A stretch of DNA of 63,978 nt, filler included, from Candidatus Hydrogenedentota bacterium (GTDB lineage Bacteria; JBFMHD01): assembly GCA_040752395.1 (NCBI GenBank). It is 11 parts of 11 records of this genome, joined end to end, with 100 filler letters (N's around TTAATTAATTAA, not from the genome) between each part and the next. Parts side by side here need not be neighbours in the genome. Positions count along the whole stretch, not along the records: positions 1 to 4,684 come from JBFMHD010000216.1; 10 more parts are not named here. One strand, 5' to 3'. Made by a program: the position numbers and the translations under genes. The notes under the pieces are model-generated. The model made no database searches, was not told where the DNA came from, and saw only the letters and a program-made list of their open reading frames with translations. This document shows positions 1-62,681 of this stretch, one piece after another. How positions within the stretch are numbered: the first letter of the stretch is position 1; the number at the start of each line of letters is the position of its first letter.

Positions 1-188
1 GTTTTTCAGAGGAGTCATCATGCGGTGCGTTGCACCGCTACACAAAGCCTGAAAAACCAGATTCAGACGTTTTCTTGCCTCTTGCTTCTTGCCTCTTTCG
101 TTATCTTTCTTTCCGTTATCTTGCTTCTTGCTTCTTGCCTCTTGCTTCTACTTGATATTATTATAGTTACAACGTTTTTCAGAGGAGG
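1..188 (+). repeat. Modular intergenic repeat copy (palindrome module, (CTTGCTT)n, terminal SD module) upstream of argG
   Basis: GCGGTGC-GTT-GCACCGC hairpin at 22-38, heptamer array, then CTACTTGATATTATTATAGTTACAACGTTTTTCAGAGGAGG ending 11 nt before ATG 200. Confidence 0.9.
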
Positions 189-199
189 TAGCTACTTTA

Positions 200-1414
200 A
201 TGAAAGACAAGGTTGTGTTAGCGTATTCAGGTGGACTTGATACATCTGTTATTTTGAAATGGCTTACTTTGAAAGGGTACGATGTTATAGCATTTGCAGC
301 TGATATTGGACAGAGAGAGGATTTTAAAGCTTTAAGAGAGAAGGCTTACAAAAGTGGAGCGAGCGAGGTGGTAATAACAGATATAAAAGATGGTTTTGCA
401 AGAGATTTTATCATTCCATGTATTCAATTCAATGCACGATATGAAGGAAGATATTTACTTGGGACATCTATGGCAAGACCCTGTATCGCTAAAGAGATGG
501 TTAGAATCGCCAATCTTAAAAAAGCAAAATATGTTGCACACGGAGCCACTGGTAAAGGAAATGATCAGGTTAGATTTGAGATCAGTGTATATGCTTTAAA
601 CCCTGATCTTGGTGTAATAGTTCCGTGGCGAGATAATGAATTCAGAAAACTGATTCCCGGTCGAAGAGAAGCGATAGAATTTGCTAAAAAACATAATATA
701 CCTGTTAAAGCAACTGTGAAAAAACCCTGGTCAAGTGATGAAAATCTGATGCATATAAGTTATGAATCAGGTATTCTTGAAGAACCAGCTGCTCGACCGC
801 CTGAGGATATGTTTGAAAGAACCCGCTCAGCACAAAAAGCACCAGATAAAGAAGAGATAATATCAGTTGAGTTTAAGAAAGGTATCCCGACAGCTATAAA
901 TGCTAAAAAAATGAAACTGGTTGAAATTTTACTAAGATTGAACGAGCTCGGTGGGAGACACAGTATTGGCAGGATAGATATGGTCGAGAGCAGGTTTGTT
1001 GGTATGAAGTCACGCGGAGTGTATGAGACACCAGGTGGCGAAATACTTGTTACAGCACATAGAGACCTTGAGGGAATAACTCTTGATAACGGCACTATAC
1101 AGCTCAAAGAAACGTTGATGCCGAGATTTTCGAAACTTGTTTATGACGGGTTCTGGTTTACTCCTGAGATGGATGCTTTAAAAGCACTATTAAAAGCAAC
1201 TCAAAAATATGTGACTGGCAGAGTAAAACTCGCACTTTATAAAGGCAGGGTTATGGCTATAGGAAGAGAAAGTGATTATTCTTTATATAATCAAAGGATA
1301 GTTTCTATGGAGGATGACAAAGGAGCATTTGACCAGTCTTTATCAACAGGGTTTATAAAGATACTTTCGATCCCTGTGAGAGCGCATTATCAAAGAACCA
1401 GGATTATGAGATAG
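200..1414 (+). CDS. argG: Argininosuccinate synthase
   Basis: VVLAYSGGLDTS, HGATGKGNDQVRFE and GMKSRGVYETPGG motifs. Confidence 0.97.
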   Translation: MKDKVVLAYSGGLDTSVILKWLTLKGYDVIAFAADIGQREDFKALREKAYKSGASEVVITDIKDGFARDFIIPCIQFNARYEGRYLLGTSMARPCIAKEMVRIANLKKAKYVAHGATGKGNDQVRFEISVYALNPDLGVIVPWRDNEFRKLIPGRREAIEFAKKHNIPVKATVKKPWSSDENLMHISYESGILEEPAARPPEDMFERTRSAQKAPDKEEIISVEFKKGIPTAINAKKMKLVEILLRLNELGGRHSIGRIDMVESRFVGMKSRGVYETPGGEILVTAHRDLEGITLDNGTIQLKETLMPRFSKLVYDGFWFTPEMDALKALLKATQKYVTGRVKLALYKGRVMAIGRESDYSLYNQRIVSMEDDKGAFDQSLSTGFIKILSIPVRAHYQRTRIMR

Positions 1415-1445
1415 GAGAGAGAATTCAGTGGTTAGAGGGATGTTT

Positions 1446-2825
1446 ATGAAAAATAGATTATGGGGTGGGAGATTCAAAAAAGAACAAAATCCATTGTTTA
1501 TGAAGTTTCAATCCTCGTTAAATTTTGATCTCAGATTATATTCTTATGATATTATCGGAAGTAAAGCATACGCGAGCGAACTTTGTAAAAAAGGGGTCTT
1601 AAGTGAAAAAGAGTGTAAAACAATAATAAAAGCGCTTGATGAGATAAAACAGGAATTAGACAGAGGAAAACATAAAAATAGAGAGCTTGAGGATATCCAT
1701 ACCCTTATCGAGGTTTTGCTAATAGAAAAGATAGGTGAAACAGCAAAAAAAATACATACAGGCCGAAGCAGAAATGACCAGGTTATGGTTGATATTAAAT
1801 TGTACCTTTTAGATGAAATGATTAATTTAAAGCAAAATATTTGTTCTCTGATAAAGACATTAGTAGCTAAAAGTAAAAAATATCTGAGCCTACCTTTCCC
1901 TTCATATACTCATCTACAACCAGCTCAACCTGTACTTTTCAGTCATTATCTTTTATATATTGCGAATACCATGTTAAGAGATGGGTTAAGGGTTAAGAGA
2001 TGTTTTTTGGAGCTTTCTTCCTGCCCCCTCGGGACAGGAGCAATCTCTGGTAACGCATTTTCTATAAACAGGGAAAGATTAGCAAAATCATTAAATTTTT
2101 TGAGTGTCACACAGAACAGTATCGATACAGTTACAAACAGAGATGATTTATTAGATGTATTATATGCGATTGCTGTAATTGGCGTTCATCTTTCGAGGGT
2201 TGCTGAAGATTTAATTATATTCTCAAGTAAAGAGTTTGATATAGTAGAGATAAAAGAAGAATTCAAAACTGGTTCATCGCTTATGCCCCAGAAACGTAAC
2301 CCTGATTTGTTAGAACTCATAAGAGGTAAATCAGCTCGGTTTATATCTAACCTGAATAGATTGATGATAGTATTGAAGGCTTTACCATCGGGTTATCAGA
2401 AAGATTTACAGGAAGATAAAGAAGCTTTATTTGATAGTATAGACCAGATTAAAATTATTCTTAATCTTTTTACTCAATTAATTCAAGGACTCAAAATTAA
2501 CGAAAAGAGAGCAAGAGAGATATTGGAGAAAGGACAGATGACAGCAACAGATTTAGCTGATTATTTTGTATTAAAAGGGATTCCATTTAGAGAGGCACAT
2601 AGACGTTCAGGTGAGATAATTCAAAAACTCGAAGAGAATGATTTAGATATTTCTACTGTTGATATAAAAATATTGAAAAAAATAGATTCAGTCATCGAGG
2701 ATGATGTTGAGAAGTTTATAAGAATAGAAGGCTCTATCAATAGAAGGAATGTAACAGGTGGTACTTCTATTCAAGCAGTAAAGAAAACCATCCGATATCT
2801 TGAAAAACAACTAAACAAATTTTAA
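1446..2825 (+). CDS. argH: Argininosuccinate lyase (start probably MKNRLWGGRF at 1446)
   Basis: LWGGRF, HTGRSRNDQV and GSSLMPQKRNPD fumarate-lyase signature; follows argG. Confidence 0.96.
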   Translation: MKNRLWGGRFKKEQNPLFMKFQSSLNFDLRLYSYDIIGSKAYASELCKKGVLSEKECKTIIKALDEIKQELDRGKHKNRELEDIHTLIEVLLIEKIGETAKKIHTGRSRNDQVMVDIKLYLLDEMINLKQNICSLIKTLVAKSKKYLSLPFPSYTHLQPAQPVLFSHYLLYIANTMLRDGLRVKRCFLELSSCPLGTGAISGNAFSINRERLAKSLNFLSVTQNSIDTVTNRDDLLDVLYAIAVIGVHLSRVAEDLIIFSSKEFDIVEIKEEFKTGSSLMPQKRNPDLLELIRGKSARFISNLNRLMIVLKALPSGYQKDLQEDKEALFDSIDQIKIILNLFTQLIQGLKINEKRAREILEKGQMTATDLADYFVLKGIPFREAHRRSGEIIQKLEENDLDISTVDIKILKKIDSVIEDDVEKFIRIEGSINRRNVTGGTSIQAVKKTIRYLEKQLNKF

Positions 2826-2839
2826 CTTACAACTTACCT

Positions 2840-3340
2840 ATGCTTTTTTTGGCTCCTACTATATGGGGCGATTTTATTGTTGAATTAACTAACAATAATG
2901 AAGTGCTTGAACTAAACTTTCCAAACCAGCGTATATCGCAGAGAATCAAAGAAAAAAATGAAAAACTGGGGGATGAATTAAATAGATATTTTACCGGGAA
3001 AAGCAAAAAAATTAATTTAGAATATTCTGTGGAAAAAATCAAGAGTGGATTTGATTCGAAGGTATTGAATGAGGTTCTGAAAATAAGATACGGCGAAATA
3101 ACAACATATTCTGATATCTCTAAAAAGTTGTATAATTCAGTTAAATGGACTCGGGCAGTTGGGAATGCATTAAAAAGAAATCCATTGCCTATTATTATCC
3201 CCTGTCATAGAATTATCAGAAATGATTCTTTTATTTCCGGTTTTTCTGGTGGGATAATATGGAAAAAACGATTGATAGAACTTGAGCGAGGTAAAAAATG
3301 TATTATATCCAGAAAAGGTCATTATTATCTTCTCTCATAA
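2840..3340 (+). CDS. ogt: Methylated-DNA-protein-cysteine methyltransferase
   Basis: RAVGNAL..NPLPIIIPCHRII active-site motif. Confidence 0.9.
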   Translation: MLFLAPTIWGDFIVELTNNNEVLELNFPNQRISQRIKEKNEKLGDELNRYFTGKSKKINLEYSVEKIKSGFDSKVLNEVLKIRYGEITTYSDISKKLYNSVKWTRAVGNALKRNPLPIIIPCHRIIRNDSFISGFSGGIIWKKRLIELERGKKCIISRKGHYYLLS

Positions 3341-4386
3341 TACATTTATTCTTATTTTTTTTACTCTTTCAATGGAAAATAGTCTATTATAAAAATAAGA
3401 TTATAGGGAAAGAGACCGGTGAGAAATTTGTATTTTTTACCCTTGAAGAAGATGAACCGGAAATAAAAAAAATAGAAACAGAGGGTAAACCTTTTAATAA
3501 TATTAAACCAGCAGAAAAAATAGATAAGTTAAAATCCAAAAATGAAAAACTGATTCTTAATAAAGATGATTTGATTGTAAAGGCGATGAAAGATATAAAT
3601 ATAACAGAGGCGGAGAAAAAAGAAGAAATCATAATACCAGAAAAGATTCAAAAAAAGGATGCTCAAAAAGAAGAAATGATAAAAGAAAAGCTGACACAAG
3701 AAGAAATAAAAAAAGATGAAGAACAGATAAATGTTAATAGATTAGTAATCGAAGATAAAAAAGAAGAAATTTTACCCATTCACCAGATTGATACCCAAAA
3801 GAAAAAAAACGATAATATATTAAAACCAGCTGAAATATTTGTTCCGATAGAAAACCCTGTGGATAGAGAAGATATGAAAGTTTTTGATAAAACACATTCC
3901 GATAAAGAAGAATCATTAAGAGTAAAATCAATAGATGAATTTTTAAAAGAGAAAAAAGATAGAAATGAATACACTCTAAACGAGTTTGAAAAACTGGATA
4001 AAGAGGATGAGAATGAATTTGATTTCGCACAATTTCGAGGCATTACTTTATCAAATTATGGCTGGGACTGGGAACCTTATTTAAGAAATTTAAGACGACA
4101 TATAAAGTTTCACTGGTATCCACCTGAGGCATTCAGAACCTACGGACTATGCTCAGGAAATACAATTATAAGATTCAGTATGGATAAAAAAGGAAATATG
4201 ATTGAGTGGAAGCTATTACATAAAGAGGGTGGCGGTGACTCTTATGCAATAGCACAGATGCATCAATCCAGTATCGATGCTATACTGACATCAGACCCGT
4301 TTCCTCAATTACCTGAAGATTTTCCTGACAAAAAGCTTGAAATAACAGTCGGCTTTTATTATTTAAAGTATGAAGAGAGTAGATAG
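3298..4386 (+). CDS. TonB/TolA-like C-terminal domain protein
   Basis: N-terminal TM with SLIIH, long charged linker, C-terminal HWYPP...PFPQLPEDF TonB_C-like domain. Confidence 0.7.
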   Translation: MYYIQKRSLLSSLIIHLFLFFLLFQWKIVYYKNKIIGKETGEKFVFFTLEEDEPEIKKIETEGKPFNNIKPAEKIDKLKSKNEKLILNKDDLIVKAMKDINITEAEKKEEIIIPEKIQKKDAQKEEMIKEKLTQEEIKKDEEQINVNRLVIEDKKEEILPIHQIDTQKKKNDNILKPAEIFVPIENPVDREDMKVFDKTHSDKEESLRVKSIDEFLKEKKDRNEYTLNEFEKLDKEDENEFDFAQFRGITLSNYGWDWEPYLRNLRRHIKFHWYPPEAFRTYGLCSGNTIIRFSMDKKGNMIEWKLLHKEGGGDSYAIAQMHQSSIDAILTSDPFPQLPEDFPDKKLEITVGFYYLKYEESR

Positions 4387-4410: not shown

Positions 4411-4684
4411 CTGATACTTCTCACTTCTTACTTTCAAAGGCACAAAGGCACAGAGGCACAGAGGCACAAAGTATGAAAAGAGTCGTGAGTCGCAAGTCGT
4501 GAGTCAAAACAGGACTCAGGACTCAAGACTCAAGACTCAAGACTTTTCAGCAGGCTCCGGGCTTTTGGCTCCAGCCGGCTGTAGTCCGTAGCCCGTAGCC
4601 CGAATTATTATAGTTACAATGTTTTTCAGAGGAGTCATCATGCGGTGCGTTGCACCGCTACACAAAGCCTGAAAAACCAGATTC
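4411..4684 (+). repeat. Modular repeat copy running into the contig end
   Basis: (GGCACAGA)n, (GTCGTGA)n, (ACTCAAG)n, CAGCCGGCTG core, (GTAGCCC)n and terminal module; last 64 nt are identical to 1-64. Confidence 0.9.
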
Positions 4685-4784
4685 NNNNNNNNNNNNNNNN
4701 NNNNNNNNNNNNNNNNNNNNNNNNNNNNTTAATTAATTAANNNNNNNNNNNNNNNNNNNNNNNNNNNNNNNNNNNNNNNNNNNN
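4685..4784. other. Artificial contig linker, first of ten (others 9455-9554, 14218-14317, 18907-19006, 38771-38870, 43372-43471, 47953-48052, 52528-52627, 57093-57192, 61597-61696)
   Basis: Identical 100-nt N-run containing TTAATTAATTAA (stops in all six frames). Confidence 0.98.
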
Positions 4785-8989: not shown

Positions 8990-9182
8990 CCTCCTCTGAA
9001 AAACGCTGTAACTCTAATAATTCGGGCTACGGGCTACGGACTACAGCCGGCTGGAGCCAAAAGCCCAAAGCCTGCTGAAAAGTCTTGAGTCTTGAGTCTT
9101 GAGTCCTGTTTTGACTCACGACTTGCGACTTGTGACTCTTTTCATATCATCTTTAGTTTTTTCATCTTGCTTCTTGCTTCTA
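8990..9182 (-). repeat. Modular repeat copy supplying the SD of the aspartokinase gene
   Basis: Reverse strand reads ...CCCGAATTATTAGAGTTACAGCGTTTTTCAGAGGAGG-TTTAT-ATG(8984). Confidence 0.9.
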
Positions 9183-9454: not shown

Positions 9455-9554
9455 NNNNNNNNNNNNNNNNNNNNNNNNNNNNNNNNNNNNNNNNNNNNTT
9501 AATTAATTAANNNNNNNNNNNNNNNNNNNNNNNNNNNNNNNNNNNNNNNNNNNN

Positions 9555-12862: not shown

Positions 12863-13080
12863 AAATTTAACTCATAATCCAATCAGTCTTAGGTAGAGCT
12901 GGTTAATCTTAGACCATTTACGTTTGAGGCACAAAGGCACAGAGTGACAAAAGCACAAAGCTCTCTTGCTTCTTGCCTCTTGCTTCTAACTATAACCGAT
13001 AGGTTACATTTAACCCTAAAATATATTTGACTAATTATAAATAATTAAATATTTATAAGCAAGAAATATTTTATTTATTA

Positions 13081-13246
13081 CTTTTAACTTTTTATAGGAG
13101 TCGTTATGAGCGCTTTTGCGCTCTACACTATTGGGTTCTTGGGTTCTTGCGTTCTTGCGTTATCTTTCTTTCCGTTATCTTGCTTCTTGCTTCTTGCTTC
13201 TTGTTTCTACTTGATATTATTAGAGTTACAACGTTTTTCAGAGGAG
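13081..13246 (+). repeat. Modular repeat copy supplying the SD of ORF 13254; a (GGCACAAA)/(CTTGCTT) fragment also lies at 12926-12988
   Basis: GAGCGC-TTTT-GCGCTC hairpin, (GGGTTCTT)n, (CTTGCTT)n, terminal module GAGGAG 7 nt before ATG. Confidence 0.9.
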
Positions 13247-14217: not shown

Positions 14218-14317
14218 NNNNNNNNNNNNNNNNNNNNNNNNNNNNNNNNNNNNNNNNNNNNTTAATTAATTAANNNNNNNNNNNNNNNNNNNNNNNNNNN
14301 NNNNNNNNNNNNNNNNN

Positions 14318-14739: not shown

Positions 14740-14751
14740 AAACCTTTGTTC

Positions 14752-15018
14752 TCCTTAAAAAAGAAAAGTTAAAAGTTAAGAAAAACATTTCTTTGGGCTA
14801 CAGGCTTCAGGCTACAGGCTCCAGCCGGCTGTAGTCCATAGCCCGTAGTCTGTAGCCTGCTAAAAACTCTTGAGTCCTGTTTTAACTCACGACTCACGAC
14901 TCTTTTCATATCATCTACTTCTTGCTTCTTCCGTTGTCTTTCTTTTCCGTTCCTCAACCTCAACCTCAACCTTTACCTTTACTTTTTCTTTCTTTCCGTT
15001 ATCTTGCTTCTTGCTTCT
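14752..15018. repeat. Modular repeat copy with mixed module orientation
   Basis: (AAAAGTT)n, CAGCCGGCTG hairpin, (ACTCACG)n, (CTCAAC)n and (CTTGCTT)n. Confidence 0.85.
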
Positions 15019-17907: not shown

Positions 17908-18051
17908 TGTAATTTTTCCCCTGAAAAAGACATTGGTTCTGTCAAAGACAGAAGATATATTATAGAGAAGACAGGAGACAGAATACAGAATACAGGATTG
18001 GGCTCCTGGTCATTACTGTCTCCGGTCAACAATTAATGATAAATAATCAAT

Positions 18052-18120
18052 CACCTCCTTTTTGAAAAAGTTAAAAGTTAAAAGTTAAGAAAAACATCTC
18101 TTCTTGCTTCTTGCTTCTAA
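18052..18120. repeat. Short repeat copy: (AAAAGTT)n plus (CTTGCTT)n, shared with 14752-14790
   Basis: AAAAGTTAAAAGTTAAGAAAAACAT occurs at both sites; an (ACAGAAT/GACAGGA)n array also lies near 17968-17996. Confidence 0.75.
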
Positions 18121-18906: not shown

Positions 18907-19006
18907 NNNNNNNNNNNNNNNNNNNNNNNNNNNNNNNNNNNNNNNNNNNNTTAATTAATTAANNNNNNNNNNNNNNNNNNNNNNNNNNNNNNNNNNNNNN
19001 NNNNNN

Positions 19007-20520: not shown

Positions 20521-20644
20521 TTTTGAAGGAATTGTCATGCGGTGAACTGCACCGCCACACAAAACATGAAAAACCAGATGTTTGTTTATCTTGCTTCTTG
20601 CTTCTATTTGATATTATTAGAGTTACAACGTTTTTCAGAGGAGG
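20521..20644 (+). repeat. Modular repeat copy supplying the SD of preT
   Basis: GCGGTG-AACTG-CACCGC hairpin, (CTTGCTT)n, terminal module GGAGG 7 nt before ATG 20652. Confidence 0.9.
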
Positions 20645-21988: not shown

Positions 21989-23227
21989 ATGCGAGATTTA
22001 AGTATAAATTTTTGTGGTAAAAACTTCCCAACACCTTTCTTGCTTTCATCTTCACCAGTGAGTAATACTGCAGAGATGATAGCACGTGGGTTTGAAGCAG
22101 GGTTTGGGGGCGTTGCATATAAAACACTTGGCGCTGACAACATAAAGATTATTCATCCATCACCAAGAATGCAGGGTTATCATTATGGCAGTAAAAGATT
22201 AATAGGTTTACAGAACGTTGAGCAGATTACTGATAGACCATTAAAAGATAATTTACAGGATATAAAATGGTTAAAAAAGAATTATCCTGATAATGTGGTT
22301 ATAGCGAGTATTATGGGGTTCTCAAAAGACGAATGGAAATATCTTGCAAAATCCTGTGAAGATGCAGGATGTGATATGCTTGAATTAAATTTCTCCTGCC
22401 CACATATGACAATCGAAGGGTCAGGAATGAAAGTTGGTCAGGCATTTGAATTATTAAAAGAGTTTACCGAGATAGTTCGTTCTGTTGTAAAGATACCTAT
22501 CCTTGCTAAACTTACTTCTAATATAACAGATATTACAGAGCCTGCGATGTATGCCAAGGAGGGTGGTGCTGACGGTATAACAGCGATTAATACTGTGCGC
22601 GGGCTTGCAGGTATAAATTTAGATGATTTTGTCCCCAGTCTAAATGTTTTTGGTAAAGGTGCTATTAGCGGATATTCAGGACCAGCAATAAAACCAATTG
22701 GTTTGAAATGTGTTGTTGAGCTTGCAAAGAAAAAAGAGCTCGGACTCCCAATTGCAGGATGCGGCGGTATTGAGACATGGATTGACGCAGTAGAATATTT
22801 ACTTTGTGGAGCTACTATTGTTCAGATGACAACAGCTGTTATAAGGTATGGCCATAGAGTTGTAGAAGATATGTGTGAAGGGTTATCGGATTTTATGGAT
22901 GCCAGAGGGTTTCAGGGAGTTAAAGACATTGTTGGACTTGCATTAACTAACATTCATGAAACAGGTGATTTTGATTTACAGCGCCAGGGTTCTGCTTTTT
23001 ATGATCTTGATAGATGTATAGGTTGTGGTCAATGTTATATTGTGTGTCAGGATGCTGGTGGTCAGGTGCTTGAGTGGGATTCTAAAAAGAGAAAGCCTAT
23101 ACCAGATGATGAAAAATGTTACAGTTGTATGATATGTTCATTTGTATGTCCTGTTAGTGACCCACCGGTTATAACATTTAGAGAGATAAAGAACAAGAAA
23201 CCATGGATACCGCAACCGTCAAGGTAG
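21989..23227 (+). CDS. preA: Dihydropyrimidine dehydrogenase subunit PreA
   Basis: ELNFSCPH, GYSGPAIKPI and C-terminal 2x[4Fe-4S] CIGCGQC / CYSCMIC. Confidence 0.92.
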   Translation: MRDLSINFCGKNFPTPFLLSSSPVSNTAEMIARGFEAGFGGVAYKTLGADNIKIIHPSPRMQGYHYGSKRLIGLQNVEQITDRPLKDNLQDIKWLKKNYPDNVVIASIMGFSKDEWKYLAKSCEDAGCDMLELNFSCPHMTIEGSGMKVGQAFELLKEFTEIVRSVVKIPILAKLTSNITDITEPAMYAKEGGADGITAINTVRGLAGINLDDFVPSLNVFGKGAISGYSGPAIKPIGLKCVVELAKKKELGLPIAGCGGIETWIDAVEYLLCGATIVQMTTAVIRYGHRVVEDMCEGLSDFMDARGFQGVKDIVGLALTNIHETGDFDLQRQGSAFYDLDRCIGCGQCYIVCQDAGGQVLEWDSKKRKPIPDDEKCYSCMICSFVCPVSDPPVITFREIKNKKPWIPQPSR

Positions 23228-23286
23228 AGGCAACCCGGGAAAAAAACTTTGTGCCTTTGTGCCTCAAACCAAGGGGTTATATTATT

Positions 23287-23805
23287 ATGAAAGAAAAGAT
23301 TATATGTGAGATTTGCGGCGAAAATGAGGCTACTGTACATTTTACTGAGATCAGGGGTAAAAAAGCTCGAAAGATTCATATGTGTGAGGAGTGTGCTGCT
23401 AAAAAAGGGATCAAGATTGTGAAAGGACAGCCACCAGGAATAAATCTTGAAAATATACTCTCTGATTTGTTTTCTTCAATTGAAGAAAAACCCGAGTATT
23501 TACCACAACTTCAGTGCCCGAATTGTGGACTGACTTATCAAGGATTTATGAGTATCAGTAAATTTAGTTGCTCAGAATGTTATAAAGCTTTTGAGTCAGA
23601 GATAAAACCTTTATTAAAACGCATTCATGGGAATATCACACATATAGGTAGAGTCCCAAAAGGTGTGTCAAAAAAGGAGAGTGTCCCTCATAAATTAAGA
23701 CAATTAAATATAGAATTAAAGAAAGCGATAGAAGAAGAACGTTATGAAGATGCAGCAAAGATACGGGATGAGATAAGAAAAATGAAAGAAAAGAAAACAG
23801 TTTAA
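23287..23805 (+). CDS. mcsA: McsA (UVR-domain activator of the protein-arginine kinase); start 23287
   Basis: Four CXXC motifs, IHG..H.G, C-terminal UVR EERYEDAAKIRDEI. Confidence 0.9.
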   Translation: MKEKIICEICGENEATVHFTEIRGKKARKIHMCEECAAKKGIKIVKGQPPGINLENILSDLFSSIEEKPEYLPQLQCPNCGLTYQGFMSISKFSCSECYKAFESEIKPLLKRIHGNITHIGRVPKGVSKKESVPHKLRQLNIELKKAIEEERYEDAAKIRDEIRKMKEKKTV

Positions 23806-23827
23806 ATTTATTTTCGGAGCAAAACAA

Positions 23828-24877
23828 ATGTTTTTTAATAATTTTTTTGAGAAGTTTGGAGAATGGCTTGGAGGAACAGGACCCCAGAGCGATGTTTGTA
23901 TAGCTTCAAGAATAAGACTTGTTAGAAACTTAAAAAATGCTGTATTCCCCCACAGAGCCACGCATCAAGAAAGCAAAAACATACTTGAAAATGTCTTTAA
24001 CTCTGCAAAGGAGATACCATTTTTGCGGAACTCTTATATGTTTGAGATCAAAAAATTAGAGAGGATCGAACAGGAGGTACTCGTAGAACGGCATTTAATA
24101 TCTAAAGACTTAATTAAATACAATTCGCCTGGTGTGATATTTGACGAAAAAGAGATTGTAAGCATAATGATTAATGAGGAAGACCATTTAAGGATGCAAT
24201 GCTTATTTTCAGGATTAGACCTCATTAATGCCTATAGGATATTAACCCGCATAGATGATGAATTGAGTGAAAAACTTGATTTCGCGTTTCATCCTGATTT
24301 CGGCTATCTTTCTGCCTGCCCTACTAATACAGGAACAGGAATAAGAGCAAGTGTTTTAGTTCATTTACCTGCCCTGGTTATCTCTGAACAGATAGGTAAA
24401 ATATTAAATACACTTGGACAGATGGGATTAGCTATACGTGGTTTTTATGGTGAAGGCACAGAAGCACTTGGCAACTTTTTTCAGGTTTCAAATCAAAAGA
24501 CGCTTGGCAAAACCGAGGAAGAGATAATAGAGAGTGTGGAAAAAGTTACGAAAAATCTTATAAACAAAGAGAGAGAGGTAAGACAGAGTCTTTTAAAAGA
24601 ATCGAAACTTAAGATTGAAGACAGTATATTCAGGGCATTAGGTATTTTATCTAATGCAAGACTTATATCTTCCAAAGAGGCTATGCAGCATTTATCGATG
24701 TTACGTCTTGGTGTAGAGATGGGAATTATTGACAAAATTTCAGTTCATAGCTTAAATAAACTATTAATTTTAATACAGCCCTCGCATCTACGCAGTTATG
24801 CAAAAATACCTGAAAATAATACAATTATGAGGGATAAAACAAGAGCTGATATTATGCGCGAACAATTACGGCACTAA
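23828..24877 (+). CDS. mcsB: Protein-arginine kinase McsB
   Basis: SRIRLVRN, NEEDHLR and CPTNTGTGIRAS phosphagen-kinase motifs. Confidence 0.95.
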   Translation: MFFNNFFEKFGEWLGGTGPQSDVCIASRIRLVRNLKNAVFPHRATHQESKNILENVFNSAKEIPFLRNSYMFEIKKLERIEQEVLVERHLISKDLIKYNSPGVIFDEKEIVSIMINEEDHLRMQCLFSGLDLINAYRILTRIDDELSEKLDFAFHPDFGYLSACPTNTGTGIRASVLVHLPALVISEQIGKILNTLGQMGLAIRGFYGEGTEALGNFFQVSNQKTLGKTEEEIIESVEKVTKNLINKEREVRQSLLKESKLKIEDSIFRALGILSNARLISSKEAMQHLSMLRLGVEMGIIDKISVHSLNKLLILIQPSHLRSYAKIPENNTIMRDKTRADIMREQLRH

Positions 24878-24921
24878 TATTGCATAAATTAATTAGATAT
24901 TTTATTATTTAACGTAGATGT

Positions 24922-25046
24922 TAAAACAAAAGATGATATGCTGACTCCGGGCTTCAGATTACAGACTACAGGCTACGGACCCCAGCCGGCTGTAGTCCGT
25001 AGCCTGTAGCCCGAATTATTAGAGTTACAGCGTTTTTCGAAGGAGG
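24922..25046 (+). repeat. Modular repeat copy (long hairpin) supplying the SD of clpC
   Basis: CTACAGGCTACGGAC-CC-CAGCCGGCTG-TA-GTCCGTAGCCTGTAG, then ...GTTTTTCGAAGGAGG 8 nt before ATG 25055. Confidence 0.9.
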
Positions 25047-25054
25047 CGTGCACG

Positions 25055-27556
25055 ATGTTTGGCCGTTATACTGAAAGGGTTGAGAGAGTTTTAAAATATG
25101 CTCGTGAAGAAGCTTATAATCTTAATCATTCAAGTGTTGATACTGAACATTTATTATTAGGTTTAATAAAAGAGGGGGAGGGTATCGCAGCTCAATTATT
25201 AAATAATCTTGGGATAGAGCTTGAGAGTGTCAGAATAGAGATTGAGAAACTGGTAACACCGGGAAAAGATACTCTGCAGATAGGCGATATAGATTTATCA
25301 CCGCGGGCCAAAAGAGTTTTACAGCTCGCACTTCAAGAAGCCCAGGCTCTTGGCCATACTTATATCGGTACTGAGCATCTGCTACTTGGATTACTGCAAG
25401 AGTCTGAGGGTTTAGCTTCAAGGGTATTATTAAATCTTGGGTTAGAGCCTGAGGTTGTACGTGAATTATTACTTGATTTACTTGGGACAGGGCATAAAGC
25501 TCCAAAACCCAAAGAAGCAAACAAGGCAGCTGGTACGCAGGTTGCACCAAAGAAAGCCACAAGAACGCCGGTTTTAGATGCGTTTTCTCGTGATTTAACC
25601 CAGCTTGGTCGGAATGGGAATCTTGATCCAGTGATTGGCAGACAGAAAGAGATAGAGCGGGTTATACAGATATTATCAAGGAGGACAAAAAACAATCCTG
25701 TGCTTATAGGCGAGCCCGGGGTAGGTAAGACAGCGATAGTTGAGGGTTTAGCGCAAAGGATTATCGAGGGTTCGATACCTCATATACTTGCAGATAGGCG
25801 GGTTGTGGCTTTAGATTTAGCAGCTATTGTTGCGGGTACTAAATATCGTGGTGAGTTTGAGGAGCGGTTAAAGAAGATTTTAACTGAGCTTAAAAGGGAG
25901 CGGAATGTTATTATTTTTATTGATGAAATTCATACGCTTGTAGGTGCGGGTGCAGCTGAGGGTGCCATCGATGCAGCTAATATCTTAAAGCCTGCTCTTG
26001 CTCGGGGTGAGATACAATGTATAGGTGCTACCACGCTTGATGAGTATCGTAAACACGTTGAAAGAGACACCGCACTTGAACGCAGGTTTCAGACAGTAAT
26101 GGTTGATGAGCCAGGTGTTAATGAAACAATCGAAATTTTAAAAGGGCTTCGTGATAAATATGAGGCTCATCACAGGGTAAAATATACAGATGATGCCCTA
26201 AAAGCAGCCGCACGTTTATCGCATCGATATATTCAGGATAGACATTTACCTGATAAAGCCATAGATGTTATAGATGAAGCAGGCTCTCGTGCAAGACTAT
26301 TAAACACCGTGCTGCCCGATAGTATTAAAGAGATGCAAAAAGAGATAGAAAAAATCAATGCTGAAAAGAACCAGGCTGTGAATAATCAGGAGTTCGAGGC
26401 CGCAGCGCGATTAAGAGATAAAGAAAAACAGATGCGTGATGATCTCGAACTGAAAAAGAAAGAATGGTTCGAATCGAAATCTAAAGAAGAAGTGATACTT
26501 ACACAAGAACAGATTGAAGAGGTTATTGCAAAATGGACCGGTATCCCGGTTGATAAACTCGCTGAAGAAGAATCTAAACGACTCCTGAAGATGGAAGAGG
26601 AACTCAGTAAAGAAATCATAGGTCAGAGAGAGGTTATAGAAGCTTTATCAAAAGCATTGAGACGTTCGAGAAGCGGGATGAAAGACCCTCGAAGACCTGT
26701 TGGAACTTTTTTATTTCTCGGACCCACAGGTGTTGGCAAAACCGAGATGGCGAGGGTTCTGGCTGAATTTATCTTTGGTGATATCGATTCTTTGATACGA
26801 CTTGATATGAGCGAATTTATGGAACGTCATACAGTATCACGGCTTGTCGGCTCGCCACCAGGATACGTCGGTTATGAAGAGGGTGGTAAATTAACCGAGG
26901 CTGTACGAAGGAAACCGTACTCCGTTGTTCTATTTGATGAGATAGAAAAGGCTCATCCAGATGTATTTAATATCTTGCTGCAGGTAATGGATGACGGCAG
27001 ACTCACTGATAATCTGGGTCATACAGTTGATTTCAGAAATACAATTATTATTTTAACCTCAAATATCGGTGGCAGATTATTATCCAAAGGCTCAACACTC
27101 GGGTTTGGACCGGGTGATAAACAAAGAGATTTTGAAAAAATGAAAGAGACTGTCCTTGAAGAAGCTAAACGTTTATTTAACCCAGAATTCATTAACAGAC
27201 TTGATGATATAATTGTGTTCAGACAGCTGTCAAAAGAAGAACTTAAATTAATAGTCGACCTGCTTACCAGCAAAGTATGTAAACATCTTTTTGAAGACAA
27301 ACACATAGAATTAAGACTGCAGGATAAAGCCAAAGAATATCTTGTTGACAAAGGTTATGACCCTAATTTCGGTGCAAGACCACTCCGAAGGGCTATACAG
27401 AAATATCTCGAAGACCCGCTCTCTGAAGAAATATTAAATGGTAATATAAAGAGTGATGACTCGGTTTCTGTAACTGTAAACAAAGAGGGTAGTTCATTGG
27501 TATTTAAATCTAAAACACCTAAAGAAAAAGAAGTAGGAAGTGATGAAAAGAAATAG
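25055..27556 (+). CDS. clpC: ATP-dependent Clp protease ATP-binding subunit ClpC
   Basis: Two Clp-N repeats, [11 protein letters not shown] domain and GPTGVGKT. Confidence 0.97.
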
Positions 27557-30245: not shown

Positions 30246-30613
30246 ATCTTAAAAAATTTATTAGCATTTTACTATTGATTGTTTTTATAAGTTGTTGTAC
30301 AAATCTAAATTTATACTCATTATTAGCTGAAGAAGAAAAATTACCAGTTGATAAAACTACTATCAAAGGTGAAGACAAAACCAAACTTGAAGTGGGCGAA
30401 AAAGAAGAAGCTGAACTTAAAGAAAAAGACCAGCAAAAAGAAACACTTACACCTCAATTAGAAGAAACTAAAAAAGAACCAGAAGCTAAAGAAGAACAAA
30501 CAAAGAAACAGGAAAAGATTAAACGTGGGAAGGGTGAGCGATTCCTTTTCTCTAAAGCCTTCTTTGGATTATTATTACTTGTCGGTATTATTGTAGCAGC
30601 AAGCAACGATTGA
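30242..30613 (+). CDS. Small exported/membrane protein with charged linker and C-terminal TM; start 30242
   Basis: MNLKKFISILLL signal, E/K-rich middle, hydrophobic C-terminus; overlaps the TPR stop. Confidence 0.6.
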   Translation: MNLKKFISILLLIVFISCCTNLNLYSLLAEEEKLPVDKTTIKGEDKTKLEVGEKEEAELKEKDQQKETLTPQLEETKKEPEAKEEQTKKQEKIKRGKGERFLFSKAFFGLLLLVGIIVAASND

Positions 30614-30623
30614 AAAACCAAAC

Positions 30624-30704
30624 TGATACCTCTCACTTCTTCCGTTATCTTGCTTCTTGCTTCTACTTGATATTATTAGAGTTACAATGTTTTTCAGAGG
30701 AGGG
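30624..30704 (+). repeat. Short repeat copy supplying the SD of exbB
   Basis: CTGATACCTCTCACTTCTTCCGTTATCTTGCTTC...TTTTTCAGAGGAGGG, then ATG 30712. Confidence 0.9.
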
Positions 30705-31359: not shown

Positions 31360-31360
31360 T

Positions 31361-31480
31361 CTGATACTTCTCACTTCTCACTTATTACTTACGCTGTTAT
31401 CTTGCTTCTTGCGTTATCTTTCTTTTCCGTTTCTCAACCTCAACCTCTACCTTTTCTTTCTTTCCGTTATCTTGCTTCTA
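31361..31480 (+). repeat. Repeat copy between exbB and exbD
   Basis: (TTCTCAC)n, (CTTGCTT), (CTCAAC)n and CCGTTATCTTGCTTC, starting just after the exbB stop. Confidence 0.85.
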
Positions 31481-31494
31481 TTATATGGAGGGTG

Positions 31495-31944
31495 ATGCTG
31501 AGTTTAGCGAGGTATCAAAAGATGAGGGTTAAAAAACAAAAGATTGAGTATATTCAACTTGATATCACGCCGCTTGTTGATGTTGTATTTCAGCTTTTAA
31601 TATTCTTTTTATTAGCCTCAAGTTTTGAATTATCAACAGGTATTAAAGTTGAGCTCCCTGAAAGTAAAAGCACTGAAACTATAAAACATCAATCAGAGTG
31701 CGTTATAACTATTAAAAAGGATGATAAGATTTATTTGAATGGATTAGAGACACCATTAATCGACCTTAAATACGAGATAAAAAAAATAATGGATTCAAAG
31801 GGTATAAACAGAGTCATAATTCAGGCTGACAGGTTTGTTTATTATGGTCGAGTGGTACGAATTATAGACATTGTGAAAGAACTTGGTATTAAGAATGTGG
31901 GTTTACCAACAAAATATATTGAAGAAGAGGTCCCGACATTTTAA
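31495..31944 (+). CDS. exbD: ExbD/TolR biopolymer transporter; start probably 31495
   Basis: DITPLVDVVFQLLIFF, VELP and IQADRFVYYGRVV. Confidence 0.92.
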   Translation: MLSLARYQKMRVKKQKIEYIQLDITPLVDVVFQLLIFFLLASSFELSTGIKVELPESKSTETIKHQSECVITIKKDDKIYLNGLETPLIDLKYEIKKIMDSKGINRVIIQADRFVYYGRVVRIIDIVKELGIKNVGLPTKYIEEEVPTF

Positions 31945-31951
31945 ACTGTCA

Positions 31952-32294
31952 GCTTTTTCGCAGAAGTCGTCATAATCGCGGTTTGTGCTCTACACTATTG
32001 GGTTATTGGGTTTTTGGGTTTTTGGGTTCTTGGGTTTTTGCGCTCTACACAATGTATGAAAAACTAAAGATGATATGAAAAGAGTCACAAGTCGCAAGTC
32101 GTGAGTTGCAAGTCGTGAGTCAAAACAGGACTCAAGACTCAAGACTCAAGACTTTTTAGCAGGCTTTTGGCTTTTGGCTCCAGCCGGCTGTAGTCCGTAG
32201 CCTGTAGCCTGTCCTGATACTTCTCACTTCTTCCGTTATCTTGCTTCTTGCTTCTACTTGATATTATTATAATTACAATGTTTTTCAGAGGAGG
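31952..32294 (+). repeat. Most complete copy (about 340 nt) of the modular repeat
   Basis: All core modules in order, ending TATAATTACAATGTTTTTCAGAGGAGG before TTG 32305. Confidence 0.92.
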
Positions 32295-32304
32295 CAAGTG
32301 AATC

Positions 32305-36599: not shown

Positions 36600-36600
36600 T

Positions 36601-36822
36601 AAGGAGTACTTATGAGCGCGGTTTGCGCTCTACACTATTGGGTTCTTGGGTTCTTGGGTTATTGCGTTTTTGGGTTTTTGCGCTCTACACAAAGGATGAA
36701 AAACCAGATGTTTGTTTATCTTGCTTCTTGCCTCTTGCCTCTTGCTTCTACTTGATATTATTATAGTTACAATGTTTTTCAGAGGAGATGATATATTAAA
36801 GGCAAGAAGCAAGAAGCAAGAA
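36601..36822 (+). repeat. Repeat copy between bamA and skp, with an inverted (GCAAGAA)n tail
   Basis: GAGCGC-GGTTT-GCGCTC, (GGGTTCTT)n, (CTTGCCT)n, terminal module, then GCAAGAAGCAAGAAGCAAGAA. Confidence 0.9.
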
Positions 36823-36837
36823 AAGGAGGATTTCCAA

Positions 36838-42021: not shown

Positions 42022-42386
42022 CAGTAGAGAGTAGAGAGAAGACAGGAGACAGAAGTTAGGAGTTGAGGAGTTGAAGAGTTAAAGAATGTATGGAGTTTTT
42101 GGGTTATTGGGTTCTTGGGTTATTGGGTTTTTGCGCTCTACACAAAGTATGAAAAACTAAAGATGATATGAAAAGAGTTGTGAGTCGCAAGTCGTGAGTC
42201 AAAACAGGACTCGAGACTCAAGACTCAAGACTTTTCAGCAGGCTCCGGGCTTCGGGCTCCAGCCGGCTGTAGCCTGTAGCCTGTCCTCATACTTCTCACT
42301 TCCCACTTCTTACTTCTTACTTTTTTCGTTATCTTGCTTCTTGCTTCTACTTGATATTATTATAGTTACAATGTTTTTCAGAGAAG
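42022..42386 (+). repeat. Near-complete repeat copy upstream of nfi
   Basis: Core modules in order; terminal module GAGAAG 3 nt before ATG 42390. Confidence 0.9.
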
Positions 42387-43058: not shown

Positions 43059-43332
43059 AAAGATACAAAGATTAAAATTTTTTTCTGATACTTCTCACTT
43101 CTTTCGTTATCTTTCTTTTCCGTTATCTTGCTTCTTGCTTCTACTTGATATCTTTAGAGTTACAATGTTTTCGAAGGAGTCAACATGAGCGCGTTTGCGC
43201 TCTACACAATATATGAAAAACTAAAGATGATATGTTGGCTTCAGTCTCCGGGCTTCGGGCTCCAGCCGGCTGTAGTCCGTAGCCCGTAGCCTGTACCCCG
43301 AATTATTAGAGTTACAGCGTTTTTCAGAGGAG
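43040..43332 (+). repeat. Two tandem repeat copies (two terminal modules) near contig end
   Basis: ...TTTTCGAAGGAG-TCAAC-ATGAGCGCGTTTGCGCTC..., then ...TTTTTCAGAGGAG. Confidence 0.88.
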
Positions 43333-43471: not shown

Positions 43472-43683
43472 CAAAGGATATTAGGGGATGGGTCATAGGG
43501 GATGGGGTATATTAGGGGGCGGCGGTTAGGGGTTAGGGGTCGGGAGTCGAGAGTCGTGAGTCAAAACAGGACTCGAGACTCAAGACTTTTCAGCAGGCTC
43601 CGGGCTTTTGGCTCCAGCCGGCTGTAGTCCGTAGCCTGTAGCCTGTACCCCGAATTATTAGAGTTGCGAAGTTTTTCAGAGGA
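43472..43683 (+). repeat. Repeat copy with a G-rich (TTAGGGG) module, supplying the SD of the UGPase gene
   Basis: GGGG tracts, (ACTCAAG), CAGCCGGCTG and ...TTTTTCAGAGGA-TGAT-ATG 43688. Confidence 0.88.
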
Positions 43684-43687
43684 TGAT

Positions 43688-48052: not shown

Positions 48053-48233
48053 CTTTGTAACTCTAATAATTCGGGCTACAGCCTACAGGCTACAGCCGGC
48101 TGGAGACAAAAGCCCAAAGCCTGCTGAAAAGTCTTGAGTCTCGAGTCCTGTTTTGACTCACGACTTGCGACTTGTGACTCTTTTCATATCATCTTTAGTT
48201 TTTCATACTTTGTGTCTCTGTGCCTTTGTGCCT
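48053..48233 (-). repeat. Repeat copy co-oriented with the hnd-like operon, running into the contig end
   Basis: Reverse complement of (GGCACA..)n, (GTCGCAA), (ACTCAAG), CAGCCGGCTG and the terminal module. Confidence 0.88.
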
Positions 48234-52258: not shown

Positions 52259-52510
52259 CCTCCTCTGAAAAACATTGTAACTATAATAATATCAAGTAGA
52301 AGCAAGAGGCAAGATAACGGAAGAAGTGAGAGGTATCAGGACAGGCTACGGGCTACGGACTACAGCCGGCTGGAGCCCCCTATGAAAAGTCTTGAGTCTT
52401 GAGTCTTGAGTCTCGAGTCCTGTTTTGACTCACGACTCACGACTCTTTTCATATCATCTTTAGTTTTTCATATATTGTGTAGAGCGCAACCCGCGCTCAT
52501 GACGATTCCT
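52259..52510 (-). repeat. Near-complete repeat copy upstream of the hndB-like gene
   Basis: On + strand GTAGAGCGCAACCCGCGCTCAT at about 52479-52500; terminal module at about 52259-52300. Confidence 0.9.
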
Positions 52511-52627: not shown

Positions 52628-52903
52628 AGGGGCGGCGCTTAGGGGTTAGGGGTCGGGAGTCGAGAGTCGTGAGTCAAAACAGGACTCAAGACTCAAGACT
52701 TTTCAGCAGGCTCTGGGCTTTTGGCTCCAGCCGGCTGTAGTCCGTAGCCTGTAGCCTGTCCTGATACTTCTCACTTCTTCCGTTATCTTGCTTCTTGCCT
52801 CTTGCTTCTTTCGTTATCTTTCTTTTTCGTTATCTTGCTTCTTGCCTCTTGCCTCTTGCTTCTACGTGATATTATTATAGTTACAAAGTTTTTCAGAGGA
52901 GGG
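52628..52903 (+). repeat. Repeat copy with TTAGGGG module, supplying the SD of the AMMECR1 gene
   Basis: ...TTTTTCAGAGGAGGG-ACTACTTT-ATG 52912. Confidence 0.9.
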
Positions 52904-56810: not shown

Positions 56811-57092
56811 TTTACTTTTAACTTGTCATAGGAGTTAGAAGTTAGGAGTTCGTAATAATAGATACGAGTTCCGAGCTCCGAACTTTGAACTTCGAACTTT
56901 TTCAGAGGAGTACCCATGAGCGCGGGTTGCGCTCTACACTATTGGGTTCTTGGGTTCTTGGGTTATTGCGTTTTTGGGTTTTTGCGCTCTACACAAAGGA
57001 TGAAAAACTAAAGATGATATAAAAAGAGTCGTGAGTCACAAGTCGCAAGTCGTGAGTCAAAACAGGACTCAAGACTCAAGACTTTTCAGCAG
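56811..57092 (+). repeat. Repeat copy running into the contig end
   Basis: (CGAACTT)n, TTTTTCAGAGGAG-TACCC-ATGAGCGCGGGTTGCGCTC, (GGGTTCTT)n, (GTCGCAA) and (ACTCAAG). Confidence 0.9.
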
Positions 57093-61784: not shown

Positions 61785-62004
61785 AGGACAGAAGACAGAA
61801 GACAGGAGGAGAAGGCACAAAGCATGGAAAACTAAAGATGATATGAAAAGAGTCGTGAGTCGCAAGTCGTGAGTCAAAACAGGACTCGAGACTCAAGACT
61901 CAAGACTTTTCAGCAGGCTTTGGGCTTTTGGCTCCAGCCGCTGTAGCCCGTAGCCTGTAGCCTGTACCCCGAATTATTAGAGTTACAACGTTTTTCAGAG
62001 GAGG
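61785..62004 (+). repeat. Repeat copy supplying the SD of pyrR
   Basis: ...CCCGAATTATTAGAGTTACAACGTTTTTCAGAGGAGGAGAG-ATG 62009. Confidence 0.9.
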
Positions 62005-62008: not shown

Positions 62009-62620
62009 ATGATAGAAGAAAAATTATTAAATGAGAAAGAGATAGAAGATACTATAAAACGTATAGCTAATGAGATACTTGACAGACATCGAGATAAAAA
62101 GATAGCGATTGTGGGTATTCATGCAAGAGGTGTAATTTTTGCTGATAGAGTATATAAGATATTAAAAAAATCCTGTAAAAATATTTTAAGAGGTACTCTT
62201 GATATAACACTATATAGAGATGACCTTGATAATTTAGGGACGATACCCCATGTTAAAGGTTCGGAACTTGATTTTGATGTTAATGGTATTGTGATAATAC
62301 TTTTTGACGATGTTTTGTTCACAGGTAGAACTATAAGAGCAGCTTTAGACGAAATCATAGATTATGGACGGCCTGCTAAAATAGAACTTGCTGTTCTTAT
62401 AGACAGAGGGAATAGAGAATTACCTATCAAGCCTGATTATACAGGGAAATATATAAAGACAGAGAGAAACGAATATATTAAAGTCAGGTTCAAAGAATCA
62501 GATAAAGAAGATGCCATATATTTGATTAGAGAATTAGAATATAGAAGCAAGATAACGAAAGAAGCAAGAAGTATCAGGACAGGCTACAGAGTACAGGCTA
62601 CGGGCTCCAGCCGGCTGTAG
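62009..62620 (+). CDS. pyrR: PyrR regulator / uracil phosphoribosyltransferase with repeat-encoded C-terminal tail
   Basis: LDITLYRDD, DDVLFTGRTIRAALD and DRGNRELPI. Confidence 0.95.
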   Translation: MIEEKLLNEKEIEDTIKRIANEILDRHRDKKIAIVGIHARGVIFADRVYKILKKSCKNILRGTLDITLYRDDLDNLGTIPHVKGSELDFDVNGIVIILFDDVLFTGRTIRAALDEIIDYGRPAKIELAVLIDRGNRELPIKPDYTGKYIKTERNEYIKVRFKESDKEDAIYLIRELEYRSKITKEARSIRTGYRVQATGSSRL

Positions 62621-62676
62621 CCCGTGGCCCGTAGCCTGTACCCCGAATTATTAGAGTTACAACGTTTTTCAGAGGA
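62542..62676 (+). repeat. Repeat copy overlapping the pyrR 3' end and supplying the SD of pyrB
   Basis: GTACAGGCTACGGGCT-C-CAGCCGGCTG-T-AGCCCGTGGCCCGTAGCCTGTAC hairpin; GAGGAG-AACG-ATG 62682. Confidence 0.9.
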
Positions 62677-62681
62677 GAACG

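Follow-up and report, generated by a model that had tools for sequence, protein, structure and literature searches.

Why would the same short sequence stand directly before the start codons of a dozen unrelated genes? This question is raised by a 63,978-base stretch of DNA (the window) from a Candidatus Hydrogenedentota bacterium (JBFMHD01; GenBank assembly GCA_040752395.1). In this window, a mosaic repeat ends in a 31-nt module, ATTATTAKAGTTACARYGTTTTTCAGAGGAG, which is made up of a U-tract and an extended Shine-Dalgarno (SD) sequence, AGAGGAG, mostly followed by another G. We propose that the module is the SD-bearing end of a spreading repeat that has inserted at the 5' junctions of genes, and that about a quarter of the genes in view probably use it as their translation-initiation region. 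(The window consists of 11 contigs, most of about 4.6 kb and one of 19.8 kb, which are separated by a six-frame stop linker, N44-TTAATTAATTAA-N44. Because the contigs are merely chained, adjacency across linkers is not real; for instance, nfi and the gene for UDP-glucose pyrophosphorylase (UGPase) are not neighbors.)

The module occurs in 16 complete copies, or about one per 4 kb, where none is expected by chance. Fifteen of them match the 23-mer AGTTACARYGTTTTTCRRAGGAG with at most 3 mismatches (0.00 matches expected, from 100 shuffles that preserve dinucleotides), and the 16th, at 43662, has 4 mismatches. Searches with the half-modules GTTTTTCAGAGGAG and ATTATTAKAGTTACA added partial copies at 1-14, 48056 (minus strand), 43150, and 56897, and degenerate copies at 17916, 20519, 31954, and 63685 came from a less strict search with the 13-mer TTTTTCRRAGGAG. 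We aligned the 16 complete copies with one from a contig of another assembly (L001, described below); the part that these 17 share is 31 nt long. Of the 31 positions from -30 to 0, 27 have at most one deviating copy among the 17, and the remainder are the variable K, R, and Y positions. Conservation ends right after the GGAG: position +1 is G in 11 of the 17 copies, and there is no signal from +2 on. The module is joined to the rest of the repeat in two ways. Nine copies (flavor A) come after …cttgcttctacttgat, while flavor B comes after a second hairpin, …gtagcccga (7 complete copies and a cut one in the window, and the copy in L001).

We then examined where the module lies relative to genes. 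Pfam annotation of 54 open reading frames (ORFs), with corrected starts for preT, exbB, skp, and UGPase, led to a list of 53 genes. (The start of exbD is probably at 31522.) In 12 of the 53 genes, the module ends 3-12 nt before the start codon, and these genes take up 12 of the 16 complete copies (Table 1). For 16 oriented sites scattered randomly over the 9238 nt of non-coding DNA, the binomial probability of at least 12 such placements is 5e-16. The initial annotation had named all 12 starts and had given the spacing as 3-11 nt, which argG, at 12 nt, extends. It had also stated that the module always points along the downstream gene, and this is what we find: among roughly 20 copies, whether complete, partial, or degenerate, not one is opposed to the gene that comes next on its contig. 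Its other placements were right as well, with copies further upstream of skp (51 nt) and of an hndB-like ORF (20 nt), and a degenerate copy, CTTTTTCAGGGGAA, 8 nt before the ORF at 17907. (The hndB-like ORF has a weak match to 2Fe-2S_thioredx, with E = 1e-4, which is below the Pfam cut-off.) The positions of Pfam domains back the predicted N-termini of argG, lysC, nfi, AMMECR1, pyrR, pyrB, UGPase, and preT.

The module's SD is the sole SD of these 12 genes. As had been claimed from the start, no other purine-rich SD is present in the 12 spacers between module and start codon. To compute pairing energies with the anti-SD, we assumed the canonical core, as the 16S gene is outside the window. The median predicted energy is -12.05 kcal/mol for the 12 module genes versus -4.65 kcal/mol for the remaining 40, and when the sites of the window are ranked by this prediction, the top 8 are all module-borne. 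The organism's use of SDs is ordinary, because other genes in the window (ppdK, preA, mcsB, skp, aroE, and ABC permease 1) have GGAG at a comparable spacing.

Gene junctions in relatives suggest how the module arrived. In G001, the genome bin that includes L001, mcsB (444-1508) overlaps clpC (ATG at 1503), and the SD lies within mcsB. Similarly, pyrR and pyrB overlap by 14 nt in G013 and by 20 nt in G014. In the window, the mcsB-clpC junction is 177 nt and the pyrR-pyrB junction is 61 nt, and both are filled by flavor B repeat. Furthermore, the homology of PyrR, a protein of 203 residues, stops at residue 172, and the repeat encodes what follows. Both the overlapping junctions in relatives and the repeat-encoded tail of PyrR support the view that the repeat was inserted at gene junctions and donated an SD. 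Translation of the downstream genes was probably coupled in the ancestor, and it would now depend on the module's SD. (The spacers between bamA and skp in relatives were uninformative because their length varies. The PyrR tail, of about 26-31 residues, is absent from relatives; it corresponds to reversed heptamer-array and hairpin modules at 62525-62620, with the stop in ggctgTAGccc.)

The position of the module, its strict co-orientation with genes, the sharp boundary after GGAG, the lack of an alternative SD, the strength of the predicted SDs, and the compact or overlapping junctions in relatives support the view that it is a ribosome-binding cassette, as judged from sequence. We suggest the following scenario. 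The repeat would be copied and pasted into the 5' junctions of genes, either by insertion or by recombination with a crossover at the SD. Compact or overlapping junctions would be displaced, and expression would be kept since the element brings its own SD; the module would then be the working translation-initiation region of its 12 genes. Later, the element would grow upstream by duplication of units and slippage of heptamers, and the junction between the SD and the gene would stay unchanged. More speculatively, flavor A, which has TGATATTAT and an array of CU-rich heptamers, may in addition be a site where transcription starts, just upstream of the U-tract, and flavor B, with its hairpin and GAATTATTA, may serve operon-internal genes on read-through mRNA. 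One proposal of the initial annotation was that the element inserts at initiation sites and is harmless because it donates an SD. This is plausible and has a published parallel in the mycobacterial MIRUs, as described in PMC12548453.

Several observations weigh against this scenario. The DNA that we examined amounts to the window (~63 kb) and one 2.2-kb contig (L001). All of the gene starts are predicted, and the starts of tonB (TTG) and ORF13254 have no support from domains. The SDs of nfi and UGPase are mutated (to GAAG and GGAT), and with just 3 nt before the ATG they would make poor sites. At 36765, the module is 51 nt away from skp, a gene that is itself equipped with an SD. Six copies of the SD-bearing segment (S) serve no visible gene: the copy at 43310 is at a contig end, and five precede the repeat's own ATG-hairpin (a complete copy at 4612 and truncated or degenerate ones at 1-14, 20519, 43150, and 56897). 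(The ATG-hairpin, 5 nt past these internal copies, opens frames of 2-34 codons, and the peptides are not conserved between copies.) The relatives that we compared are distant (45-62% protein identity), so the comparison of junctions is informative but not decisive. When we inspected the junction sequences by eye, we saw no flanking target duplication, and the left ends were heterogeneous. No transposase could be linked to the repeat. Two predictions that are described below, the rank of the modules in a promoter scan and the effect of shuffling on SD accessibility, are also unfavorable.

As to transposases, we considered an insertion like that of IS200/IS605 elements, 3' of the GGAG, since a GGAG-like sequence also precedes the ATG-hairpin. 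We rejected this idea because the left ends are heterogeneous, there is no hairpin near the ends of flavor A copies, and no Y1 transposase was seen among the 54 Pfam-scanned ORFs. (A fragment of a Mutator/IS256-family transposase is present at 47427-47828 on the minus strand, with a match to Pfam Transposase_mut at E = 1.7e-15. These families make target duplications of 8-9 bp, like a MITE (a miniature transposable element with inverted repeats) that is discussed below.)

Could the module provide a promoter as well? The initial annotation had offered a shared 5' untranslated region (UTR) or promoter part as its other explanation. In the strongest form of this idea, every module, or at least every flavor A module, starts transcription at an extended -10 and yields a common short leader (about 20-30 nt), which is how Neisseria REP2 and Borrelia IR-A/B have been described. 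A hexamer of the form TAnnnT (as TAKAGT) does fit all 17 aligned copies, as had been noticed, and TGATATTAT, which has the extended -10 form TGnTATTAT, is present in 9 of the 17; these are the 9 flavor A copies. A start about 7 nt past TATTAT would give leaders of 22-31 nt. Flavor A copies also precede ORF13254, the hndB-like ORF, and AMMECR1, which are divergent and need their own promoters. In the part of PMC3184786 that deals with them, REP2 and IR-A/B are described as having a promoter, a ribosome-binding site (RBS), and an ATG. However, the 8 flavor B copies have GAATTATTA instead, without the TG and without a better hexamer, and there is no -35 at 16-18 nt from the module's hexamer. On the 19.8-kb contig, a generic scan for sigma-70 promoters gave 74 sites, which is no excess over shuffles (73.4), and none of the five modules on this contig was among the best 60 of the 74 sites. 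Since the copies have the hexamer in common by descent, they are not independent evidence for a promoter. Also, flavor A copies are found before exbB and tonB, which are usually co-transcribed. Overall, a complete promoter and RBS cassette is possible but doubtful. Promoter activity of flavor A taken by itself is likewise rather unlikely, and for flavor B it would be less likely still. The promoter part of the original proposal is weak.

The predicted accessibility of the SD also bears on this question. On read-through RNA, which we modeled with 119 nt upstream of the 31-nt module, the predicted probability that the SD is unpaired is 0.06-0.26 for 8 flavor A copies versus 0.45-0.92 for 5 flavor B copies (Mann-Whitney p = 0.004), a pattern that is consistent with a division of labor between the flavors. 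The CU-rich array of flavor A resembles the anti-SD. If the RNA starts at AGTTACA instead, the SD of flavor A copies is predicted to be freer (0.29-0.69), as would be expected if flavor A contained a promoter. But shuffled upstream sequence gives similar accessibility, so the low accessibility of flavor A results from composition rather than from a designed fold. Although the difference between the flavors is real in the prediction, we rejected SD accessibility as a designed feature. The two junctions that are operon-internal in relatives (mcsB-clpC and pyrR-pyrB) both carry flavor B.

Another explanation is that the module is a regulatory leader, at whose U-tract or SD a trans-acting protein or small RNA controls all of the module genes as a post-transcriptional regulon. 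In favor of this, the module is nearly invariant even where no role as an SD or promoter is obvious, such as in AGTTACA; the repeat's K module (GAAAAAC) is complementary to GTTTTTC; and Neisseria genes with REP2 are co-regulated, according to the description in PMC3184786. But the module genes are functionally unrelated housekeeping genes, and the upstream modules of the repeat are equally conserved, so recent spread or homogenization explains the identity. Rfam had no match for the whole window at the gathering score, nor for 31900-32350 at E up to 1, and we know of no candidate factor. We consider a shared regulatory leader to be improbable. Finally, a short-read assembler might have joined a collapsed repeat to gene starts inside contigs. 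Many contig ends do lie inside the repeat, so it disturbs the assembly. Nevertheless, one 19.8-kb contig has five internal copies that are flanked on either side by unique DNA, there are a few positions at which the copies differ, and a contig of another assembly has the same module. An artifact of this kind has almost no credibility. We conclude that SD donation at gene junctions is the most probable of these explanations.

To describe the whole repeat, we compared the window to itself. This identified 28 repeat blocks with a total of 4181 nt (~4.2 kb), all in spacers or at gene ends, which is nearly half of the window's non-coding DNA (9.2 kb). The modules follow one order throughout, and any of them may be absent: S (the U-tract and SD); an ATG-hairpin, of two kinds (H1 and H2); an array of octamers (ttgggttc) between direct repeats of TTTGCGCTCTACAC; K (TGAAAAAC), which is the inverted complement of GTTTTTCA; aaagatgatatg; a hairpin from gagtcgt and gactcaa heptamers; a hairpin from gggcttt (or ctacggg) and gtagccc heptamers around CAGCCGGCTG; tcctgatacttctcac…; an array of ttgcttc heptamers; and the terminal module. 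The gagtc/gactc and gggct/agccc hairpins are predicted and recurrent, and are missing from short flavor A copies. The element between exbD and tonB, which is nearly full-length, has the H1 hairpin, the octamer array, K, both of these hairpins, the ttgcttc array, and the terminal module. The 3' end, at the gene, is constant and the 5' extent is variable; elements often start immediately at the upstream gene's stop codon (bamA TAG taa GGAG… and exbB TAA tctgatac…). We searched the window for an inverted partner of the terminal module and found none, so the repeat is not a MITE with terminal inverted repeats.

Table 1. Copies of the module, related repeat features, and contig linkers. Distances are counted from the last G of the module's GGAG to the start codon.
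Feature	Position	Strand	Start codon and distance	Remarks
Truncated S (1-14)	1..60	+	5 nt to H2	Then K CTGAAAAAC; GTTTTTCAG/CTGAAAAAC is a 9-nt inverted repeat
Flavor A	157..187	+	argG ATG (200), 12 nt	
Flavor B, internal	4604..4634	+		Then H2; contig ends at 4684
Flavor B	8991..9021	-	lysC ATG (8984), 6 nt	
Second leader type	13075-13100			
Flavor A	13216..13246	+	ORF13254, 7 nt	
Second leader type	14745-14790	-		
Degenerate S	17916..17929	-	ORF start 17907, 8 nt	CTTTTTCAGGGGAA
Second leader type	18055-18100	-		
Flavor A	20613..20643	+	preT ATG (20652), 8 nt	Older diverged S-H2 unit from 20519
Flavor B, CGAAGGAG variant	25015..25045	+	clpC ATG (25055), 9 nt	Within the 177-nt mcsB-clpC spacer
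Flavor A	30672..30702	+	exbB ATG (30712), 9 nt	
Near full-length element	31977..32294	+		Between exbD and tonB
Flavor A	32263-32293	+	tonB TTG (32305), 11 nt	
Flavor A	36757..36787	+	skp ATG (36839), 51 nt	skp has its own AGGAGG
Flavor A	42356..42386	+	nfi ATG (42390), 3 nt	SD mutated to GAAG
Degenerate internal copy	43150..43179	+	H1 ATG, 5 nt	
Flavor B	43302..43332 (copy 43310)	+	ATG directly after GGAG	Contig end at 43371
Degenerate flavor B	43654..43684	+	UGPase ATG (43688), 3 nt	GGAT
Flavor B	48053..48070	-		Cut by contig end
Flavor A	52260..52290	-	hndB-like ORF (52239), 20 nt	Second GGAG 9 nt before ATG
Flavor A	52871..52901	+	AMMECR1 ATG (52912), 10 nt	
S alone	56897..56910	+	H1 ATG, 5 nt	Different upstream context
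Flavor B	61973..62003	+	pyrR ATG (62009), 5 nt	
Repeat block encoding the PyrR C-terminal tail	62543..62678	+		PyrR stop within hairpin module
Flavor B	62647-62677	+	pyrB ATG (62682), 4 nt	
Linkers	4685-4784, 9455-9554, 14218-14317, 18907-19006, 38771-38870			
Linkers (continued)	43372-43471, 47953-48052, 52528-52627, 57093-57192, 61597-61696			
In-frame CAGAATA array	L069 (G020:C12), ~1500-1580			
In-frame CAGAATA array	L077 (G020:C24), ~1500-1545			

Other features of the mosaic are as follows. The (ttgggttc)n array lies between two direct copies of its flanking repeat at 36613-36700, 31975-32060, and 56915-57000, and a hairpin module without the array has a single copy (43185-43215); the array looks like an insertion or slippage nested within the hairpin module. 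Upstream of exbB, the TGA in a K module (TGAAAAACC), at 30611-30613, is the stop codon of a 142-amino-acid ORF. A second type of leader, with GTTTTTC, an (aactttt)n array, and GGAG, is found before hyp157 and near 18060; it calls to mind U/A-rich translational enhancers. Shorter or older array ends that lack AGTTACA…GTTTTTC are present before exbD (…cttgcttctattatatGGAGG, 31360-31500) and about 80 nt before hyp328 (…cttgcttctattatataacc…, 61340-61520, minus strand). Reversed arrays (gcaagaa…) take up the 58-nt spacer that immediately precedes hyp161 (46291-46348), and a sense octamer array precedes a gene with a CBS domain (49153-49223), so modules of the mosaic other than S also abut start codons. 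As for the organism itself, mcsA-mcsB-clpC (23203-27556) is on the same contig as bamA-skp-lpxD and exbB-exbD-tonB (with 33447-38433). An mcsA-mcsB-clpC operon is typical of Firmicutes, so this combination implies a diderm with the arginine kinase/ClpC system.

How widespread is the repeat? Contig L001 (2198 bp) shares the repeat, and its module lies 9 nt upstream of an ATG. This ATG opens a frame of 24 codons (the ORF listed there has 27 amino acids and begins at an upstream GTG), which overlaps the apparent start of a longer ORF with its own GGAGG. (We read this longer ORF from the sequence; it is absent from the ORF list.) The rest of the bin G001 is a different organism: its ClpC is 62% identical, and the window's DNA at 200-4386 has no match there. 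Within G001, the repeat is on contig C128 only, and none of the other 24 species genomes of this phylum has the 23-mer (the only hit is G001:C128). Nor did we find the 23-mer or the two-hairpin pattern in JGI metagenome contigs, the 23-mer in viral contigs, or, by blastn, the full element in plasmids. None of the papers searched contains the three motif words that we looked for. The 14-mer of S is at background in the 25 genomes of G001's phylum, with 0-2 copies per genome and 8 in G004. (In G004, GATTTTCAGAGGAG occurs 4 times, and it may be a separate small repeat.) Hence, judging by these collections, amplification of the SD-bearing module is confined to the window's organism. We also followed up ATTATTATTTTAAGGAGG, which is found before skp-like genes of G008 and G012, and rejected it, as a single copy per genome indicates orthologous conservation and not a repeat.

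Heptamer arrays as such are characteristic of this group. With at most 1 mismatch, CAGAATACAGAATACAG occurs 312 times in G020, 108 times in G008, 52 times in G012, and 26 times in G002, and its reversed control is absent from all four genomes. The heptamer is also found in the window, at 17950-17975. In G020, one CAGAATA array is in frame within an ORF for leucyl-tRNA synthetase, where it separates the catalytic domain from the anticodon-binding domain, and another is within the ORF of a YfhO-like membrane protein; such 7-nt arrays add 7-residue peptide repeats.

G008 and G012 also contain a classical MITE, 216-377 bp long, whose inverted ends are GTAACTATTCAGGTA…TACCTGAATAGTTAC and whose target duplications, of 8 bp and A/T-rich, were present in 10 of the 12 copies that we examined (L055-L066). 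Its end motif, CTACYTGAWTAGTTAC, has 100 copies in G008, 61 in G012, and 47 in G016. After short tandem repeats, the MITE ends in …CTACCTGAATAGTTAC. The junction of flavor A, CTACTTGAT-ATTATTA-TAGTTAC, which likewise comes after a short tandem array, resembles this end with 7 nt inserted. This post hoc resemblance suggests that the AGTTAC part of the module may descend from a MITE end that acquired a U-tract and SD leader. In contrast to the module, the MITE does not bear an SD (in G008, none follows GTTAC), and the window lacks its terminal inverted repeat (1 match, with 0.78 expected). A bolder version, to which we give little credence, is that the family homes to gene starts, where it may recombine or insert at the GGAG of the RBS and regenerate GGAG; the MITE end (…TAGTTAC) may have captured the leader, which would now standardize initiation for roughly a quarter of genes. 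If so, translation of a large share of the proteome would depend on one mobile sequence and would be open to control through it.

Repeats that carry an RBS are rare and low-copy (about 26 per genome for REP2), and here one 31-nt sequence is the SD of 12 of 53 genes. If this holds genome-wide, the module would be a natural case of a standardized and portable translation-initiation part. It would also help to explain how selfish repeats can colonize operon junctions without killing expression, and it would provide a handle on the spread of one-ended repeats that are anchored at gene starts. The two flavors give a testable prediction: flavor A would combine a possible promoter with a CU-rich array that masks the SD on read-through RNA, and flavor B would combine a hairpin with a free SD within operons.

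Among known systems, the closest functional parallels are Neisseria REP2 and Borrelia IR-A/B. In the account of PMC3184786, REP2 is 120-150 bp, with about 26 copies per genome, two stem-loops, and no terminal inverted repeats; its features include a promoter, an RBS, and an ATG, and it is found directly upstream of 14 contact-regulated genes. By this description, the window's repeat is similarly intergenic and directly upstream of unrelated ORFs, supplies an RBS and 5' UTR, and has hairpins and no terminal inverted repeats. Unlike REP2, which includes the ATG, the module is conserved only up to GGAG, and the spacer and ATG are gene-specific. REP2 has a demonstrated promoter and a co-regulated set of genes, whereas the module's promoter is doubtful, and REP2 is a single unit, whereas the window's repeat varies as a mosaic of heptamer arrays, and its density is higher by roughly two orders of magnitude. 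The Borrelia plasmid repeats IR-A and IR-B are described in the same source as repeated upstream regions, with two stem-loops, that give a promoter, RBS, and start to different genes. Those are plasmid-borne, low-copy, and before paralogous lipoprotein genes, whereas the window's repeat is chromosomal and before unrelated housekeeping genes.

MIRUs are another relevant case. As PMC12548453 presents them, citing Supply et al. 1997, they sit between genes of the same orientation and point along the operon, and their insertion at start codons is believed to keep the downstream gene translated, by means of an internal ORF that is coupled to the gene at -4 nt. The window's repeat is also intercistronic and co-oriented (in the mcsB-clpC, pyrR-pyrB, exbD-tonB, bamA-skp, and hyp142-exbB spacers), but it brings an SD and has no coupled internal ORF. 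When we looked for such an ORF, the last stop in the NTGA frame was 2-65 nt before the start in 7 of the 8 NTGA genes; ORF13254 alone has a longer open frame.

Like Correia, BOX, and BIME/NIME repeats, the window's repeat is non-coding, modular, and interspersed or mosaic. Those families are neither anchored at start codons nor suppliers of an SD, and Correia elements have terminal inverted repeats, whereas the window's element has no inverted partner. REP/BIME repeats are short GC-rich palindromes of alternating orientation, with an associated Y1 transposase (RAYT). The window's repeat has hairpins, collinear modules, and an orientation that is fixed by the gene, and the 54 ORFs scanned include no Y1 transposase. 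The heptamer arrays of cyanobacterial STRR sequences share only their array character with it. Correia elements carry outward promoters, according to what PMC3184786 says of them. In short, this kind of repeat has precedents in Neisseria, Borrelia, and mycobacteria, and the window's repeat is a far denser version.

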